Counted from the first letter of the stretch, positions 19,725 through 28,000 are shown. The stretch is DNA of 64,000 nucleotides from Dehalococcoidia bacterium (GCA_965207225.1 CBDBLV010000005.1:1664001-1728000), one strand, 5' to 3'. Numbers and translations: made by a program. The notes: generated from the letters alone by a model not told the origin.

Positions 19725-21736
19725 GCATCAGGTACAGGTATTCTAAGTGGGACGGGACGCAGGAGCCGTTCAGGGCGTCGGCGGAGGAACTGCTGGACGA
19801 GCTGACCAAGGACATTCTCGCCTACGGAGACCTGCAGTCGGCGATGCAGCGGCTGGTGGAGCGAGGAATGCAAACGCGACAGGGGATGCGGATGCAGGGG
19901 CTGCGGGACCTGATTGATCAACTCCGTCGTGAGAAAGAAAAGCAACTCAAGCAATACGACCTCGAGTCGATGATGGACGATCTGAAGGAGACGCTCGACA
20001 AGATCGTGAGGATGGAGAGGGAGGAGCTTGAGAAGCGGCTGGATGAGGCCCGGGGGTCGGGGGAGGGCGAGGACTCTCCAGAAGAGATGAGGGAGATGCT
20101 GGAGAGGATGGTCCAGAAAAAGATGGACCAGCTGGACAACCTTCCGGAGAGTGTGGGCGGGACGTTCAAGGAGCTGATGGACTATGAGTTCTTCGATGAG
20201 GAGGCCCGGGAGGAGTTCCAAAAGCTACTGGACATGCTCAGGCAGAAGATGCTGGACCCCTACGCCCGGGACCTGGCGGAGCGGATGCAGAACATGGGCC
20301 CCGGGGAGATGGATGCGATAAAGCAGATGCTCTCCGATCTGAACGAAATGCTGGAACGGCAAAGGATGGGGCTCGACCCCGGCTATGACGAATTCAAGCA
20401 GAGGTATAGGCGGGCATTCCCTGACATGCCCGATACCCTGGAGGAGTTCGTCGAGGACCTGCAGAGACGGATATCGCAGATGCGGTCCTTGATGAACAGC
20501 CTATCGGACGAAGCGCGGGAGTCTCTCGAGCAGATGATGCAATCCCAGATGACGGACCCCGAGCTGGCTGACTTAATGGCCAGCCTCGCCGAGAACCTGG
20601 AGGCCCTCCACCCGACGCGGCGGAGGATGAGTGGCTACCCGTTCGAAGGGGAGGAGGAGTTGAGCTGGGATGAAGCGATGCAGCTGATGTCCAAGATGCA
20701 GGACATGGAGGAGCTGGAGGCGCAGATACGTCGGGCGCAGGCGAGTCGAGGGCTGGAGGGGATAGACATGGAGAAGCTGCGGGAGGTGCTGGGCGAGGAG
20801 GCGGAAGAGGATGTGGAGGCGCTCAGGCAACTGGTGAGGGAGATGGAGGAAGCGGGATACCTGCGCTTCAAGGACGGGCGCATGGAACTTACACCCAAGG
20901 GCCACCGGCGGATAGGACAGAAGGCGCTGAGGGACATATTTGGGCACATGAAGAAGGACCGTCGGGCGGCGCACGAGGTGAGGAGGACAGGAATCGGGGT
21001 GGAGGACGTGCAGGAGAGCAAGCGCTACGAGTTTGGAGACCCGTTCCGTTTGAATATCCCCAGGACGGTGCTCAATGCCGTTGAGAGATCGGGTGCGGGG
21101 ACGCCGGTGCGGATGATTCCCGATGACCTGGAGATCTACAAGCCCGAACACCAGACCCGGAGCGCGACCGTGCTACTGCTGGACCAGAGCCGGTCGATGG
21201 ACATGAGCGGGGACTTCTTCGGGGCCAAGAAGGTAGCCCTCGCATTGCACAGCCTGATATCAGGGCAGTTTCCAAAGGATGACCTTCACATAATCGGGTT
21301 TTCGCTAATGGCGGAGGAGATCAAGGCTCGGGACCTGCCGGAGGCGGGCGCCAGCGACAGTGCGCCGGGCACGAACATGCACCATGCGCTGCAATTGGCC
21401 CGGGAGTACCTGGCCAAGCGCAAGTGCGAGAACAAACAGATCATCATGATCACGGACGGGGAGCCGACGGCCCACATGGAGCAGGACTACCCGTATTTCG
21501 CCTGGCCCCCGAGCATGGCAACGGTGCAGGCTACGCTCCAGGAAGTGAAACGCTGCACCAAGGACGGGATAATCATCAACGTATTCATGCTGGACACGAG
21601 CTACTATCTAATCGATTTCATGGAGCACGTGACGAAGATAAACCGGGGTCGGGCGTTCTTCACGACGGCTGACAGGCTGGGCGAGTACATCCTGGTTGAC
21701 TACATCAACCACAAGAGGACTCGGATCCGGCCGTAG
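19721..21736 (+). CDS. VWA domain-containing protein
   Basis: RYRYSKWDGTQ N-terminus, coiled coil, MIDAS DQSRSM..GTN..ITDGEPT. Confidence 0.88.
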   Translation: MSIRYRYSKWDGTQEPFRASAEELLDELTKDILAYGDLQSAMQRLVERGMQTRQGMRMQGLRDLIDQLRREKEKQLKQYDLESMMDDLKETLDKIVRMEREELEKRLDEARGSGEGEDSPEEMREMLERMVQKKMDQLDNLPESVGGTFKELMDYEFFDEEAREEFQKLLDMLRQKMLDPYARDLAERMQNMGPGEMDAIKQMLSDLNEMLERQRMGLDPGYDEFKQRYRRAFPDMPDTLEEFVEDLQRRISQMRSLMNSLSDEARESLEQMMQSQMTDPELADLMASLAENLEALHPTRRRMSGYPFEGEEELSWDEAMQLMSKMQDMEELEAQIRRAQASRGLEGIDMEKLREVLGEEAEEDVEALRQLVREMEEAGYLRFKDGRMELTPKGHRRIGQKALRDIFGHMKKDRRAAHEVRRTGIGVEDVQESKRYEFGDPFRLNIPRTVLNAVERSGAGTPVRMIPDDLEIYKPEHQTRSATVLLLDQSRSMDMSGDFFGAKKVALALHSLISGQFPKDDLHIIGFSLMAEEIKARDLPEAGASDSAPGTNMHHALQLAREYLAKRKCENKQIIMITDGEPTAHMEQDYPYFAWPPSMATVQATLQEVKRCTKDGIIINVFMLDTSYYLIDFMEHVTKINRGRAFFTTADRLGEYILVDYINHKRTRIRP

Positions 21737-21745
21737 GGGGAGGGG

Positions 21746-22129
21746 TCAGGAGATGCCGAGGTCCCGGGCTGTTGAACGGAGTTTCCTGTCGAGTGTGGCC
21801 AGAGGCGTGCCGAGGGTCTGGGCCAGGTGGAGGTAGCTGGCGTCATAGGCGGTGAGTCCGGTGTCGAGGGCTAGTTGCAGGGTTTCTTCGAAGTCAACTT
21901 CTTTTCAGCTAATCACTGTGCTGAGTGCTACATTCAGCGCTTCAAATATGCCGATTCGCTCGGAAGGATTCTGATTTGCTTTCTTCCAGGCAATGTTGGT
22001 GACCTCAAAGGTCAAGAGGTGTGGAGCGTAGAATTCGTACCCTTCCACGAGTGCTAATGCTTCGTCTGCATTTAATTCATCGAAAGCAATAGCGGCGAAT
22101 ACGGATGAGTCAACGACTATGGCCGGCAT
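21746..22129 (-). pseudogene. vapC: VapC/PIN toxin with internal in-frame TGA (21905-21907)
   Basis: VVDSSV..EVTN then, in the same frame after TGA, TGLTAYDASYLHLA..LATLDRKL. Confidence 0.75.
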
Positions 22130-22352
22130 CTCTATCTTCCCTAATCATTTGAGTTGCTTCATTCGTTCTACGAAGGTTCAATCGCTTGATTTCTTCATAT
22201 GCCTCTTTAATCGTCAAACGCCTGGGCAATAGAGTCTCCTCAAGGATTGAAAGCAATTCACCTTGAATGGAACGATGGTTGCGTTTTGCTCGATCTCTTA
22301 ATCTCTGCGCTAAGGGGTCAGGAACATTTCGGATGGAAAGATTAACTGTCAT
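22110..22352 (-). CDS. FitA/Arc-like ribbon-helix-helix antitoxin
   Basis: LSIRNVPD..LRDRAKRNHRSIQGEL; overlaps vapC start. Confidence 0.85.
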   Translation of the reverse strand: MTVNLSIRNVPDPLAQRLRDRAKRNHRSIQGELLSILEETLLPRRLTIKEAYEEIKRLNLRRTNEATQMIREDRDAGHSR

Positions 22353-22410
22353 AACTACTCCACTTTACTGCCAGAATGCATATATTTTAGCATCAAAGCT
22401 GCTTCAAATG

Positions 22411-22435
22411 AAAGGGCCCGCCATTTGGCGGGCCC
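22411..22435 (-). terminator. Rho-independent terminator after HesB/IscA gene
   Basis: GGGCCCGCCA/TGGCGGGCCC stem followed by TTTC on the minus strand. Confidence 0.6.
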
Positions 22436-22466
22436 CAATTTGTTTCTGTCGAATGTAGGTCGGGGG

Positions 22467-22808
22467 TTAGCCGCCCCGGCCGCAGGCGCAGTTGCCGCCA
22501 CAACCTCCTCCACCACCGCCCTGGAAGTTGGGGTTGTTGACCGTGAAACCGGAGCGTTCGAGGGTCTCAATGTAGTCGATTTGCGAACCCTCAAGCATCG
22601 GGGCGCTTTCGGGGTCAAAGACGACGGTGAGGCCATCCTGCTCTACGGTCATGTCCTCTGCAGAGATGTCGTTGTCCAGGGACATCATGTACTGCGGCCC
22701 CCCGCAGCCCATGCCTGCAATCATCACCCGGAGGGAGATTTCTTCCTCTTCCTGCTCGGCGATGAATTCCTTAACCTTTTCGAGAGCGATGGGAGTTAGG
22801 CTTACCAT
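22467..22808 (-). CDS. HesB/IscA/ErpA iron-sulfur cluster assembly accessory protein
   Basis: LTPIALEKV, GMGCGG..Y, IDY..GF..NNPN..CACG. Confidence 0.9.
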   Translation of the reverse strand: MVSLTPIALEKVKEFIAEQEEEEISLRVMIAGMGCGGPQYMMSLDNDISAEDMTVEQDGLTVVFDPESAPMLEGSQIDYIETLERSGFTVNNPNFQGGGGGGCGGNCACGRGG

Positions 22809-22962
22809 GTGGTTCTCCTAGAGGGCGTTCTAACCGGACGTTTGGGATAGGTTACCGCGAGGGCGGTTGGGGGTCAAGAGTCGGGCGCAACGCCGGAAGA
22901 GGAAACGGGTACTGATATAGTATTCCGGAAATCGGCCGGGCCCGGACTATTGGAGGGATTCC

Positions 22963-24141
22963 ATGACCATGCAATTGGACAGTGAATACGAAAAAGGCAG
23001 ACCGGCGATGACAGCATTGCGAAGGGATATCCACTGCCACCCGGAGCTGTCATTCAAGGAAGTTAGGACGGCGGCGCTGGTAGCCGAGAAGTTGTTGGAG
23101 CTAGGGCTGGAGGTGAGGACGGGTGTCGGCAAAACAGGGGTCACGGGGCTGCTGAAGGGTGGGTCTCCGGGAAAGACCCTGCTTATCAGGGCAGACATGG
23201 ATGCCTTGCCAATTGAAGAATCCAATGGCTTGGCCTTCCGGTCACGGGAGCCGGGGGTGATGCATGCCTGAGGTCACGATGGGCACGTAGCCGTGGCTAT
23301 GTCAGTTGCATCGGTACTGACGGGAGTGAAGGATGATATTAAGGGCAACGTGAAGTTTGCCTTCCAGCCGGCGGAGGAGACCGCGGGAGGTGCGCTAGGG
23401 ATGATCGAAGCGGGGGCGTTGGAGGACCCCAAGGTGGATGCCACTATCGCCCTGCACATTATCAACACGTTGGAGACAGGCAAGGTCGGGGTGCGGGTGG
23501 GCGGGATGTTCGCCAGCGTTGACGAGTTCACCATCAGGATCAAGGGGCGCGGGGGTCACGCGGCACATCCAGAGTCGTTGGTTGACCCGGTGCTTGTTGC
23601 GGGGCAGGCCGTAAGTGCGCTTCACCATATAGTGGGTCGGAATGTGGGGGCGCAGGATTCGGCGGTGCTGAGCATCGGAATGATAAGGGGTGGGACAGCA
23701 TTCAACATCATCCCCGAGGAGGTGGAGTTGAAAGGGACGGTGAGGGCATTCGATGACGGGACTCGAGACAGGGTAATGAGTCGTATTGAAGAAGTGCTGG
23801 CAGGGATAACCGCCGCGGCGGGTGCGACCTACGAATTCGAGGACATCTACCAGAGTCCAGTTGTCATGAACGAGGCAGAAATCACGGACTTAGTCCGTCA
23901 GGCAGCGGAACGGGCCATTGGCGCCGAGAACGTGATTGAGTGCGAACCGACCATGGGCGGCGATGACCAGGCGTATTTCCAGAAGGAAGTGCCAGGTTGC
24001 TACTTCATTGTCGGGGGTGGGGATGAGGGCGCGGGATACGGGCCCCATCACAGCGCGACATTCGGGTTTGACGAGCGGGCGCTAGAGGTCGGGCTCCGGG
24101 TAATGACGGAGGCGGCGTTAGAGTATCTGGGTCGGGGGTAG
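22963..24141 (+). CDS. M20 (Acy1/YxeP-like) amidohydrolase, predicted selenoprotein (TGA 23269-23271 = U103)
   Basis: HPELSFKE, RADMDALP, MHA-TGA-GHD in frame (family MHACGHD), FQPAEE, GGHAAHP; hairpin 23285-23302. Confidence 0.85.
23272..23302 (+). promoter_or_regulatory. Putative SECIS element
   Basis: ACGTAGC-CGTG-GCTATGT hairpin, loop 20 nt after UGA. Confidence 0.6.
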
Positions 24142-24258
24142 GGGACCAGGAACCCCAACTAAGCTCCAAAAGGAGTTGTATTCTTGTAATGCTTTGGTAC
24201 AAACAATGCTATATGTGTTGCCAAAACGCACACAAACGGCAATAATTGGGAAATAGCC

Positions 24259-24540
24259 TTGAGATTTGATTGGAGCGAGGAGAAAAACCACAGGCTCATC
24301 AGGCAAAGGGGAGTCTCATTTGACAGTGTCGTCGCATCCATAGAAGGTGGCCGAGTCTTGGATGTTGCAAGGCACAGTAATCAGGATCGCTATCCGGGGC
24401 AGTGGATGTATGTCGTTGAGATTAATGACTATATTCACATGGTGCCCTTTGTTGTCCAGGACGATGGGTCCCATTTTCTTAAGACCATTATCCCCAATAG
24501 CAGATTAACGAGAGAATATAGAAGGAGGAGACAGCCTTGA
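24259..24540 (+). CDS. BrnT-like (DUF497-type) toxin
   Basis: FDWSEEKN..L..RGVSF; HPNQ-like HSNQDRYPGQ; FLKTIIPNSR. Confidence 0.8.
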   Translation: MRFDWSEEKNHRLIRQRGVSFDSVVASIEGGRVLDVARHSNQDRYPGQWMYVVEINDYIHMVPFVVQDDGSHFLKTIIPNSRLTREYRRRRQP

Positions 24541-24842
24541 ATGAAAGTCTGGATAGGGAAGAAATGGAAATCCTAGAGCAATACGAAAGAGGGGAATTTA
24601 AATCAGTACCCAATATGGAGCAGGCGATAGAATGGGCCAGAGAGGCAGCACGCAACACATTAAAGAAGACCAAACGGGTGAATCTTCGCGTAACGGAGCG
24701 TGACTTTGATCTAGCCCACGCGCGGGCGCGGGAGGAAGGGATTCCGTATCAGACACTGCTTTCCAGCGTGATTCACAAGTATTTGCGTGGTCGGCTGGTT
24801 GAGAAACCGAGGTCTGAAGTCGGGGTTAGGGAGATGATGTGA
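24537..24842 (+). CDS. CopG/BrnA-like antitoxin
   Basis: KKTKRVNLRV..D..ARAREEGIPYQTLLSSVIHKY. Confidence 0.82.
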   Translation: MNESLDREEMEILEQYERGEFKSVPNMEQAIEWAREAARNTLKKTKRVNLRVTERDFDLAHARAREEGIPYQTLLSSVIHKYLRGRLVEKPRSEVGVREMM

Positions 24843-24909
24843 GATCACATACCCTCCATAAGGCTGTCATTGGGTTGATAGCCCTACGCCTAAGGCTTAT
24901 AGTTGAGCT

Positions 24910-25149
24910 TTGGAATACGAATGGGATGAGGTCAAATGCCTAGCTAATCTCAAAAAGCACCATGTGGACTTTTACGCAGTCTATGGGTTTGACTGGAATA
25001 CGGCGACTGTCAGCTACAGCCAACGTGAGGGTGAGTCCCGATGGACGGCTACGGTATACGCAGGTGATCTGTTCATCTTTCTGGTGTTCACGATAAGGGA
25101 CAACAAGATTCGGGTGATCAGCATCCGCAAGGCGAAATTGGAAGAGTAG
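24910..25149 (+). CDS. BrnT family toxin (possibly C-terminally short)
   Basis: YEWDEVK..NLKKH.VDF; GESRW; IRVISIRKA. Confidence 0.75.
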   Translation: MEYEWDEVKCLANLKKHHVDFYAVYGFDWNTATVSYSQREGESRWTATVYAGDLFIFLVFTIRDNKIRVISIRKAKLEE

Positions 25150-25150
25150 G

Positions 25151-25495
25151 ATGAAGATTCGGGAGACTAAGCCTAACAAGATCAAGTTGGATCCTGCTGA
25201 TGTAGATAGTTACCGGCAGAAGATAGAAGAACTCGCGGCATTGGAATTGGATTTCGTGGAGGTAAAGGCCATTTATGGCGAGGACGTAGCCATTGACGTT
25301 GGCATTGCCCGAGACCCTGACTGCCCGGAACTAACCGCAGAAGAAATTGCTCAAATGCGCCCCGCCATTGAAGTTGTTCCGGAGATAGTGATGGCATACC
25401 GACGAGGCGAGCTAAGAATCCGACCAGACCTATTGGCGAAAAGAGACAATGGTGGAATGGAAGCTGGACGGCCAACGGAGGTGAGGCGTGACTAA
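25151..25495 (+). CDS. Putative BrnA-like antitoxin
   Basis: GIARDPDCPELT..MRPAIEV motif, directly after BrnT. Confidence 0.55.
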   Translation: MKIRETKPNKIKLDPADVDSYRQKIEELAALELDFVEVKAIYGEDVAIDVGIARDPDCPELTAEEIAQMRPAIEVVPEIVMAYRRGELRIRPDLLAKRDNGGMEAGRPTEVRRD

Positions 25496-26471
25496 GAAGC
25501 TGTTGGTTGGAACGGATGCTGGGCTCCTCATCCTAGAAAGGGAAAACGGCTCCTGGGCCAAGTCCGCCGAATCACTGGAAGGCAAGTGGGTGCAGAAACT
25601 GGAGATCGATGCCTCTGGGAGGATGTATGCGGGAATTACGCATGATGGTGTGTACTGGGCGGACTCGGCGTCGGGCCCCTGGACTCAGGGTTTAGAGGGA
25701 GACATCAGGGGCCTGGGTGTCTCTCCTCATCAGTCGGGCATGGTTTTTGCCGGTACGGAGCCGGCAGCAGTGTTCAGGAGCCGGGACGGGGGGGAGAGCT
25801 GGCTTGAAATGGAGGCCGTGAAGGCACTGCCCAACTATTCGACATGGTCTTTCCCAGCCCCTCCGTTCATCTCCCATGTGCGGACATTCGACTTTGATCC
25901 CGTCGAGCCGGCAACCGTGTATGCGGGGGTGGAGGTCGGGGGGCTGATCCGCAGCAAAGATGGCGGGGAGACATGGGAGCATTACGGTGAGGGCATATAC
26001 GAAGATATCCACTATCTTCTATCGCACCCCAGCGATGCCAAGGTCATGTACTCGACCACGGGCGATGGATTTTACCGCTCAACGGACGGGGCCCGGAACT
26101 GGGAGCACATACAGGACGGCATGGAGAACCCCTACACTCATCCCATCATCTTCGACAGCCGGGACCCGAACATTCTTTACATAGGATCGGCGATAGACAA
26201 TCCCAGCACCTTCGGGAGGCCGGAAGGCGCTGCGGCGCGCATATACAGGAGCAGGGATGCGGGGTCGACGTGGGAGAGGCTCGGGAACGGGCTGCCGGAC
26301 AGGCTTCACGGGATGGTGAGGGGGTTGGTGTCGGACCCTGGGGTGTCAGGCGGGTTGTATGCGGGTACGACGGACGGGGAACTGTTCGCCAGCGAGAACG
26401 AGGGAGACAGCTGGGAGCTGATCGCAGACGGGCTTCCGGCAATATGGGTGATCAAGGTGCCCTCTAATTGA
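25488..26471 (+). CDS. BNR/Asp-box repeat beta-propeller protein
   Basis: Repeated RSxDGGxxW Asp-boxes. Confidence 0.85.
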   Translation: MTKKLLVGTDAGLLILERENGSWAKSAESLEGKWVQKLEIDASGRMYAGITHDGVYWADSASGPWTQGLEGDIRGLGVSPHQSGMVFAGTEPAAVFRSRDGGESWLEMEAVKALPNYSTWSFPAPPFISHVRTFDFDPVEPATVYAGVEVGGLIRSKDGGETWEHYGEGIYEDIHYLLSHPSDAKVMYSTTGDGFYRSTDGARNWEHIQDGMENPYTHPIIFDSRDPNILYIGSAIDNPSTFGRPEGAAARIYRSRDAGSTWERLGNGLPDRLHGMVRGLVSDPGVSGGLYAGTTDGELFASENEGDSWELIADGLPAIWVIKVPSN

Positions 26472-26518
26472 GTCAAAGAACCAAAAGGTAATGTCCGAGA
26501 GTTGAGGAGCAAGCCGAA

Positions 26519-28000
26519 ATGGCACAACAGGCACTGGTAGGCAGCATAAGGGCCCCGGACTTCCCGAGGGATATAGACTGGCTGAACGTCGGGCGTTCTC
26601 TGAGCATGGAGGACTTCAAGGGCAAGATAGTCATTCTGGACTTCTGGACCTACTGCTGAGTCAACTGCATGCACGTATTTCCGCAGTTGCGGAAACTGGA
26701 AGAGAAATATCGGGACGAGCTGGTGGTGGTCGGGGTCCATTCGGCGAAGTTCACCACCGAGAAGGAAACGGCGAACATCGAAAAGGCGATACGTCGCTTC
26801 GAGCTGGAACACCCGGTGGTCAACGACAAAGACTTCCGGGTGTGGAGCCAGTACTCGGCGCGTGCGTGGCCGACCCTCTATGTGATCGACCCCGAGGGCA
26901 ACATCCTCGGGCGACATGAAGGTGAGATAACCTTTGGGGCTTTCGACAGGGTTATCAGCGACATGATCACCGAGTTCGAGGCCCGGGGCACGTTAGACCG
27001 GTCACCGATTCCCGGCTTCTACGAGCACAAGAAAGAAGGAGGCATACTCTCCTTCCCCAGCAAGATCATCTCGAATGAAGCTGGGTCCCGACTTTTCGTG
27101 TCGGACTCCAACCACAACCGTATTCTGTCCATCTCGATGGATGGCCAGATTTTGGACGTAATCGGTGGAGAGGAGTCCGGGCTGGAGGACGGAAACTTTG
27201 CAGACGCCCAGTTCAACCATCCCCACGGGCTGGCCATTTCGGGAAAGAACCTCTACGTGGCGGATACGGAGAACCACTGCATACGTCGAGTGGACCTGCA
27301 GACCCGAACGGTCGAGACGATAGCCGGGACCGGAGAACAAGCGCGCATGTTCCATGATGGTGGAGTTGGAGAGGTTGCCCTGAACTCGCCCTGGGACCTG
27401 ACCTGCCAGGACGGGATGCTCTACATTGCCATGGCGGGCTTCCACCAGCTGTGGGTGATGCACCTGGAATCAGGGTACGTGGGGCCTTTCGCCGGGAGCG
27501 GCAGGGAGGGGATCCGAGATGGGTCTCTGCGCAACTCGATGCTGGCCCAGCCTACGGGAATCGACACTGACGGTGACACCATCTACTTCGCAGACAGCGA
27601 GACCAGCGCCGTTCGGACGGCTACGAGAGGGGAGTCGGGGCAGGTGAGCACGCTGGTGGGCACCGGACTGTTCGACTTCGGAGACAGGGACGGGGTCGGA
27701 GACCGTGCACTTCTCCAGCACGTGCAGGGAATCTGCTGGCACGATGGCATGCTCTACGTCACGGATACCTACAACAACAAGGTCAAGCGGATCGACCCCT
27801 TGACCCGGGCTGTGGTCAGCTTTACGGGGTTGGGGGATACGGGCTTCGAGGATGGGTTATCCAAAGAGGCCCTGTTCTACGAACCCGAGGGTCTCGCTAT
27901 CGCTGACGGCAAGATGTACATCGCCGACACCAATAACCACGCCATCAGGGTTGCGGCTCTGTCCACGGGCACGGTGTCGACCCTGAAAATCAAGGAATAA
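26519..28000 (+). CDS. Thioredoxin-like + NHL repeat protein (NHLRC2/SOQ1-like), predicted selenoprotein (TGA 26657-26659 = U47)
   Basis: Upstream in-frame RAPDFP..WLN..GKIVILDFWTYC-TGA-VNCMH (family WTYCCINCMH), GVHSAKF, AWPT, NHL repeats; hairpin 26678-26695. Confidence 0.88.
26660..26695 (+). promoter_or_regulatory. Putative SECIS element
   Basis: TTTCCGC-AGTT-GCGGAAA perfect hairpin, loop 25 nt after UGA. Confidence 0.65.

Follow-up and report, generated by a model that had tools for sequence, protein, structure and literature searches.

Introduction

In nearly all known selenoproteins, selenocysteine (Sec) serves as a redox nucleophile or as the ligand of a redox metal (PMC13188914, section 7), and the bacterial selenoprotein catalogue of 2026 comprises 119 families and subfamilies (PMC13188914). 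Direct ligation of an active-site metal by Sec is described for the formate dehydrogenase FdhA (Mo/W) and the [NiFeSe] hydrogenases (PMC13188914, section 7). Sec was likewise proposed to bind metal, and not to act as a redox nucleophile, in the SaoB, SaoC, MbdU and UXX-star families (PMC13188914, Table 1); these are transport or organometallic-handling proteins, and neither an M20 peptidase nor any other hydrolase is found in that table. Here, we describe an M20D amidohydrolase gene on a 64,000-nt stretch of a Dehalococcoidia bacterium genome (GCA_965207225.1, CBDBLV010000005.1:1664001-1728000; hereafter the window), in which a UGA codon occupies the position of the metal-bridging cysteine. 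Very probably, the gene encodes a full-length enzyme in which this UGA (codon 103) is recoded to Sec, the predicted bridging ligand of the metal site.

The nearest solved structures are the M20D enzymes YxeP (1YSJ, 1.4e-79), the Staphylococcus aureus M20 peptidase 4EWT, ILL2 (1XMB) and the N-acyl-glutamine aminoacylase CsAga/N-AGA (6SLF, 1.6e-50). Together they cover E-values of 1e-50 to 1e-79 and share with the window gene the two-domain build (PF01546 and PF07687), the family model TIGR01891 and the QPAEE motif, and all five ligand columns can be aligned. Unlike in these four structures, the bridging Cys is replaced by UGA in the window gene, and a selenocysteine insertion sequence (SECIS) hairpin is located in codons 108-114. 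FdhA and the [NiFeSe] hydrogenases have Cys homologues as well, and Sec directly ligates their catalytic metal; however, they catalyse redox reactions at redox-active metals to which Sec is a terminal ligand, whereas a bridging Sec on a hydrolytic Lewis-acid pair (zinc in 6SLF) is predicted here. With ordinary bacterial selenoprotein genes, the window gene has in common a UGA followed by an intragenic bacterial SECIS (bSECIS), a Cys homologue at the same column and a full sel set, but its family lies outside the 119 that are catalogued.

A single reading frame with one internal stop

The gene forms a single frame of 392 codons including the predicted Sec-103, running on the plus strand from the ATG at 22963 to the TAG at 24139-24141. 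Its lone internal stop is the TGA at 23269-23271 in the context VMHA-TGA-GHDGH, where translation table 11 cuts the gene into two open reading frames (ORFs; 22963-23271 and 23293-24141). A first-pass annotation had claimed that these fragments are in frame and parted only by the TGA between MHA and GHD, which the translation bears out. The start was set to 22963, and the UGA thereby to codon 103, because the orthologues retain the first Met but not Met-3, and because a GGAGGG motif precedes the ATG by 5 nt. The residue-103 peptide of the predicted read-through product is VMHA-U-GHDGHVAVAMSVASVLTGVK.

The read-through protein matched PF01546 (Peptidase_M20, 3.2e-44) with the inserted dimerisation domain PF07687 (1.5e-13), both above their gathering scores. 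It reached 367.4 bits with TIGR01891 ("amidohydrolase", cut-off 153.75), and a search of the genome itself, reading through the TGA, gave 360.3 bits. At this level it is the sole TIGR01891 gene of the genome, the four other matches being under the cut-off. Two equivalog models were considered for a more specific assignment and rejected: CpsA (NF040868) scored 374.3 bits against a cut-off of 500, and the N-acetyl-diaminobutanoate deacetylase DoeB2 (NF038260) 276.6 bits against 550, so the gene was not filed under either name. No selenoprotein-specific model in NCBIfam release 20 matched the protein.

The metal site and the role of residue 103

In 6SLF, Cys-105 is a ligand of both Zn ions and thus bridges them, while His-107, Glu-141, His-168 and His-370 provide the other ligands (residue numbers in the chain differ by one from those in its paper). 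In the HMMER alignment, with the residues checked, these five positions correspond to U103, H105, E139, H165 and H363. The UGA column also aligns with the Cys of MHACGHD in all four structures, namely 1YSJ, 4EWT, 1XMB and 6SLF. The window protein hence has four of the five ligands of an M20D site (H105, E139, H165, H363) and the preceding Glu (E138), with UGA at the bridging position; the set would be complete if Sec is inserted there and binds as Cys does. Since the residues align with the 6SLF ligands, Sec is predicted at the bridge of the dinuclear site. The earlier claim that the Cys of HACGHD is a metal ligand holds for 6SLF. Glu-138 is the residue which we take to be the general base, by homology within the family. 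In general terms, this role of the M20 Glu is given in a review (PMC11511702), where the bridging role of the M20 Cys between two metal ions is likewise stated.

A SECIS hairpin downstream of the UGA

Downstream of the UGA, the stem ACGUAGC (23285-23291) pairs with GCUAUGU (23296-23302) around the loop CGUG (23292-23295). The first-pass annotation had described a 7-bp hairpin with a CGTG loop that begins 20 nt downstream; the hairpin was recovered, but its stem begins 13 nt after the UGA, and it is the loop that follows a 20-nt spacer. In the published bSECIS model, the stem measures 4-16 bp and the loop 3-9 nt, one of the first two loop bases is a G that often has a G or U behind it, the loop lies 16-37 nt from the UGA, and the minimum free energy (MFE) is at most -7.5 kcal/mol (PMC13188914, Fig. 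2 legend). The window hairpin fits this model with a loop of 4 nt, a stem of 7 bp, a second loop base G followed by U, a spacer of 20 nt and -14.2 kcal/mol for the 47-nt MFE fold of 23269-23315. This extended fold was also found in three orthologues. The bare 18-nt hairpin folded with -6.7 kcal/mol (z -2.64; 1 of 200 shuffles as stable).

In an alignment of nine orthologues, only 22 of the 211 amino-acid-invariant degenerate codons were also codon-invariant, and five of these are consecutive (H V A V A, +5 to +9) and lie on the hairpin. A streak of five such columns was reached in 19 of 10000 shuffles. The gene has only one invariant run of at least 12 nt; it measures 16 nt, begins 15 nt downstream of the T in TGA and is likewise located on the hairpin. 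No Rfam match was obtained for window positions 20000-28000 at E-values up to 1, so no curated SECIS family fits. Similar hairpins, with GU in a small loop, follow the in-frame TGAs of the selD gene of this genome and of a thioredoxin-like gene of the window, both described below.

Conservation of the UGA and selection on the codons behind it

A search of 41 related genomes (match at E <=1e-40) returned the amidohydrolase in 16, of which 10 carry TGA at the identical column. The carriers (G000-G009, 70-94% identity) are G000, all eight other species in its genus and, from a second genus in the family, one species; two more genera in the family, represented by G010 and G011, were not matched by this query. 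The other six genomes that matched are more distant (39-49% identity) and have Cys at the column, and Cys was read in seven distant loci. The pairing of HA-TGA-GHD in ten genomes with HACGHD in these loci is what the first-pass annotation had proposed to look for, and it recurs in metagenomes (see below). When 401 genomes sampled evenly across the phylum were searched, 215 gave a match (E <=1e-60), and among the 150 match rows listed, TGA was seen in G000 only, with 120 further matches beyond these rows. Five unpublished genomes (G377, G208, G077, G306, G262) are counted in this tally and enter no other result.

For the analysis of selection, a codon alignment of nine orthologues was used, with G003 omitted due to a frameshift, covering 85 codons before the Sec codon and the sequence from there to the stop. 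The ratio of nonsynonymous to synonymous substitution rates (dN/dS; Nei-Gojobori, 36 pairs) was 0.046-0.122 downstream of the TGA and 0.043-0.478 upstream, where the top value came from a pair with a dS of 0.03. In most inter-clade pairs, dS exceeded 1. Relaxed selection behind the stop had been named as a possible outcome at the outset; instead, purifying selection after the TGA is strong. Codons +1, +3 and +4 showed synonymous changes only (GGT/GGC, GAT/GAC, GGG/GGA). Such synonymous-only change between the TGA and the GTG at 23293 shows that these codons are translated, which rules out a dead gene as well as a restart at this GTG.

Metagenomic relatives, covariation and tree

Using a degenerate DNA pattern for MHA-TGA-GHDGH, 40 metagenome contigs were retrieved, and in all of them the motif was in frame in an M20D gene. 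Downstream of the TGA, 25 loci had 288-301 open codons and 11 were open to the contig end. A contig search with the protein query was dominated by back-translated VMHACGHD and returned Cys forms only; these served as an outgroup and not for a count of Sec forms.

From 49 loci, 9 of them genomic and 40 from metagenomes, 42 distinct 57-nt segments starting at the TGA were obtained after removal of duplicates and one truncated segment. A strong hairpin was recognized by eye in 36 of them, in two registers, and the segments were aligned without gaps. Alignment A1 holds 15 sequences (the window genus and the type CACCGC-GGUC-GCGGUG; pairs in columns 17-23/28-34), and alignment A2 holds 21 (type GGCCAUC-GGUCU-GAUGGCC; columns 20-27/33-40). 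In A1, 92.4% of the cells were paired, and in A2 97.0%, values that are inflated because the grouping was made by eye, on the basis of the hairpin register. This choice has less bearing on the compensatory changes: three of seven pairs in A1 (including UA/CG and AU/CG) and four of eight in A2 had changed on both sides. The covariation score was reached by 0 of 500 shuffles in either alignment, a count that, like the Mann-Whitney p of the control described next, overstates the significance because the sequences are related. Shifting the partner by 1-3 columns collapsed the pairing. The loop bases G25 and U26 were invariant in all 15 sequences of A1.

An unselected control with one rule for all segments (stem of at least 6 bp and G in the first two loop positions) found the hairpin in 35/43 TGA segments versus 23/122 Cys segments. 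The mean MFE was -16.7 kcal/mol for TGA and -12.9 kcal/mol for Cys segments, at GC contents of 0.67 and 0.62, respectively. A close pair of loci illustrates the difference: L190 (TGA) and L049 (Cys) are approximately 0.3 substitutions per site apart and both encode H-T-A-V-A, but the codons that allow pairing are found in the TGA gene only.

A FastTree tree was built from 153 rows (32 TGA and 121 Cys) with at least 85 open codons before and at least 270 after the site; the columns flanking the site were removed. The window clade of nine was monophyletic with a support of 100, and most TGA clades were placed among Chloroflexota sequences. Judging by the names given to the fragment proteins ("Chloroflexi bacterium") and to the nearest named homologues, the organism itself probably belongs to the Chloroflexota. 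The Cys/Sec label changed seven times on the tree, and at least five changes are forced by well-supported branches, although the number of independent switches is tentative because this is a quick tree without an approximately unbiased (AU) test. The TGA singletons L153 and L183 are without a recognizable hairpin and may be decayed genes.

Selenocysteine machinery and genetic code

The genome (4.03 Mb, five contigs, 92% completeness, 8% contamination) contains the complete machinery for Sec insertion. We found selA with 556 bits, selB with 327 bits and its C-terminal part in the same frame, selD with 387 bits, and tRNA-Sec with 66 bits, called by ARAGORN as tRNA-SeC with the anticodon tca. Other matches to the tRNA-Sec model were tRNA-Ser and other ordinary tRNAs and were discarded. 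In the scan of the whole genome, the UCA anticodon occurred in 1 of 49 tRNAs, that is, in tRNA-Sec only, while tRNA-Cys has GCA and tRNA-Trp CCA. Both the presence of the machinery and the possibility of a tRNA-Cys with a UCA anticodon had been raised by the first-pass annotation; the former is now established at the gene level, and no such tRNA-Cys was among the 49. TGA terminates 653 of 1992 open frames of at least 350 codons; it is thus a normal stop here, and the code has not been reassigned. Across the related genomes, selA was above its cut-off in 10/10 genomes with the TGA form and in 4/6 genomes with Cys only.

The selD gene (locus L012, C5:649975-650898, minus strand) itself contains one in-frame TGA in the motif HCAG-U-ASK, followed by an 8-bp hairpin with the loop GUG, and as read from its sequence is itself a selenoprotein gene. 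A second, weak match to SelA (locus L002, C5:1653222-1654034, plus strand; 59 bits, under the cut-off) lies in a 403-aa open frame approximately 10 kb before the window and is probably another enzyme dependent on pyridoxal phosphate.

Weighing of alternative explanations

If the catalytic Cys codon had been lost to a nonsense mutation, only a stub of 102 residues would be left, and this is how gene callers treat the gene. In a collection of 5.8 billion proteins, all 15 clusters with at least 72% identity to the full protein are C-terminal fragments of 269-282 aa, the best full-length protein is only 53% identical, and 37 of the 120 listed matches of the N-terminal piece (1919 in total) end exactly at ...MHA. 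The additional frameshift in G003 also fits decay. Such a pseudogene is nevertheless highly improbable. The same TGA is kept in ten genomes down to 70% identity, across which synonymous sites are saturated (dS >1), the dN/dS of 0.05-0.12 behind it already contradicts a dead gene, 25 of the 40 metagenomic loci retain the intact 288-301-codon downstream frame, and the gene is the only one for an M20D enzyme in this genome. Equally little credence is due to a split enzyme, in which residues 1-102 would assemble with a polypeptide restarted at the in-frame GTG at 23293, seven codons after the TGA. The restart would skip GHDGHVA, which includes the ligand His-105 and is conserved at the protein level with synonymous changes only; moreover, no Shine-Dalgarno sequence precedes 23293, and the GTG itself lies inside the conserved hairpin. 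That the true codon is TGC or TGT and was misread or misassembled has almost no probability, since ten genomes and 40 metagenome contigs show TGA and nothing was found in its favour. In four runs, each from a different study, contigs span the site and include the gene or its 5' part, and among the differences listed for them (136 more lie beyond these) none falls on 23269-23271. The suspicion that the TGA is unique to this assembly can therefore be dismissed.

The rival that deserves most attention is a UGA read as a standard amino acid, be it Cys through a recoding tRNA, Trp or Gly by a change of the code, or a near-cognate residue through leakage. The inserted residue is not discernible from sequence, and Chloroflexota have unusual Cys-tRNA pathways (SepRS/SepCysS; PMC5424206). 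Even so, we consider this reading unlikely. The sole UCA tRNA has the long-arm structure of tRNA-Sec, the tRNA-Cys and tRNA-Trp carry their usual GCA and CCA anticodons, and TGA serves as a common stop, not only in this genome but also at the end of 14 of the 25 complete metagenomic TGA genes themselves. SelB requires a hairpin of just this kind, conserved, covarying and with GU in a loop placed at SECIS distance, whereas leakage would do without one, and selA accompanies the TGA form in all ten carriers.

Several observations weigh against the recoding to Sec and the ligand role assigned to it. The G003 orthologue (loci L034, L040) keeps the TGA but has a frameshift approximately 80 codons downstream, near residue 180, which reflects either gene decay or an assembly error. 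A further stop comes early in four of the 40 loci from metagenomes, and 6 of the 42 TGA-type sequences (L153, L159, L163, L173, L181, L183) show no hairpin in either register. The folding energy of the region is unexceptional compared with shuffles (z -0.94 for 81 nt and z -0.61 for 47 nt); it was dropped as an argument, and the hairpin is considered to be beyond chance because of the comparative evidence. The reservations given above for the paired percentages and for the shuffle counts belong here as well. In addition, the ligand role is assigned by homology to a protein that is approximately 30-35% identical. No substrate can be assigned, and the scores with the equivalog models stay under their cut-offs.

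Proposed mechanism and novelty

With recoding to Sec as the preferred reading, the following mechanism can be proposed. UGA codon 103 would be recoded by the standard bacterial route, in which tRNA-Sec is charged through SelD and SelA, and the intragenic SECIS hairpin, whose loop is separated from the UGA by 20 nt, would recruit SelB with Sec-tRNA(Sec). In the folded enzyme, the selenolate of Sec-103 would take the place of the Cys thiolate that bridges the two catalytic metals, with His-105, Glu-139, His-165 and His-363 completing the metal site and Glu-138 presumably acting as the general base. By the usual mechanism with metal-activated water, the enzyme would then hydrolyse either an N-acyl-amino acid or a peptide bond at a C-terminus. 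Selenium insertion, selenium-metal ligation and the reaction catalysed are what we infer from the genes and alignments described above.

There is good support for the gene as a candidate new selenoprotein family, M20D with predicted Sec at the metal-bridging position; the TGA form is conserved within one bacterial family and is found again in environmental relatives. The family is apparently unrecorded so far. The catalogue of 119 families has no M20, PF01546 or TIGR01891 entry, and the words peptidase, acylase and hydrolase are absent from its text (PMC13188914), in line with the remark in the first-pass annotation that the family is not recognized among classical selenoproteins. A term search of the main texts of BSepDB (PMC13326102), deep-Sep (PMC12013277) and the Haft and Gwadz preprint found none of these terms either, and full-text searches of the literature found no paper on a selenoprotein of the M20, amidohydrolase or aminoacylase type. 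We regard it as fairly likely that this is the first hydrolytic, non-redox metalloenzyme family with an encoded Sec as the mu-selenolate bridge of a dinuclear centre. As at least five Cys/Sec changes are found, mostly in Chloroflexota-like lineages, a recurrent selective gain is suggested and not a one-off accident. Possible gains from Sec would be a bridging ligand that resists irreversible oxidation, or a shift in the metal held or in the acidity of the site.

If true, a selenium-bridged Lewis-acid hydrolase would widen the chemistry for which cells pay the cost of Sec insertion. Natural Sec/Cys pairs such as L190/L049 could reveal the effect of selenium on metal affinity, on the pKa of the bridging water and on oxidation tolerance. 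The read-through form is annotated by no source in the 5.8-billion-protein collection, and because every close relative there is stored as two fragments, the enzyme is invisible to annotation and to metabolic reconstructions. Within the main texts covered, the family is also missing from the lists that seed selenoprotein databases.

Features of the locus and neighbouring genes

Table 1. Coordinates (window numbering) of the amidohydrolase gene and of the elements assigned within and before it.
Feature	Position	Strand	Basis
Shine-Dalgarno-like GGAGGG	22952..22957	+	5 nt before ATG; read from sequence
M20D amidohydrolase gene	22963..24141	+	translation, Pfam, TIGR01891, PDB 1YSJ match
In-frame UGA, predicted Sec (U103), column of metal-bridging Cys	23269..23271	+	alignment; conserved in 10 genomes
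His-105 codon, predicted metal ligand (His-107 of 6SLF)	23275..23277	+	alignment, ligand list
Possible extended SECIS, lower stem CGAUG/CAUCG around apical hairpin	23277..23313	+	MFE fold of 23269-23315
Apical SECIS hairpin, 7-bp stem, loop CGUG	23285..23302	+	folding, invariance, covariation
Glu-138 (general base, by homology) and Glu-139 (predicted metal ligand, Glu-141 of 6SLF)	23374..23379	+	alignment
His-165 codon, predicted metal ligand (His-168 of 6SLF)	23455..23457	+	alignment
His-363 codon, predicted metal ligand (His-370 of 6SLF)	24049..24051	+	alignment

Parts of the gene were present in several sequencing runs labelled as marine, sponge or coral metagenomes; the shares were small, and no habitat is claimed. 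No RNA run was among those listed, which speaks neither for nor against the reading. In two runs (X9, X11), the contig depth rose several-fold over 23243-23322 only, the stretch of MHA-TGA-GHD and the hairpin, because it is matched by short contigs of other organisms in these samples, as would be expected if more M20D relatives were present there.

With regards to the neighbourhood, the flanking genes (an IscA-like gene, two toxin-antitoxin pairs and a VWA-domain gene) gave no hint of a substrate. The IscA/HesB-like Fe-S assembly gene (PF01521, 22467-22808, minus strand) is divergent from the amidohydrolase gene and lies directly upstream of it in 9/9 relatives. The IscA/HesB-like family is a selenoprotein in some organisms (PMC13188914, Table 1), and the copy at 22467-22808 is of the Cys form. 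Further upstream, a FitA-like ribbon-helix-helix antitoxin gene (22110-22352, minus strand) adjoins a PIN-domain (VapC-like) gene (21752-22129, minus strand) with an in-frame TGA at 21905-21907 in the middle of the domain (PF01850, 3.1e-12 with X at the break); the latter is probably a broken toxin gene. Directly downstream of the amidohydrolase gene, and in some relatives only, a weak BrnT-like toxin and a CopG/BrnA-like antitoxin were recognized at 24259-24842 (plus strand), with E-values of approximately 1e-4 and under the Pfam cut-offs.

At 26519-28000 (plus strand), the window contains a gene for a thioredoxin-like protein (Thioredoxin_8/AhpC-TSA/Redoxin) with NHL repeats, in which a TGA at 26657-26659 is found in the motif WTYC-U-VNC. 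Reading through this TGA completes the Thioredoxin_8 match (profile positions 1-94 of 94), while the ORF of translation table 11 begins at profile position 17. A 7-bp hairpin, UUUCCGC-AGUU-GCGGAAA, was located at 26678-26695. By these features of its sequence, the gene is a candidate for a second selenoprotein in the window.

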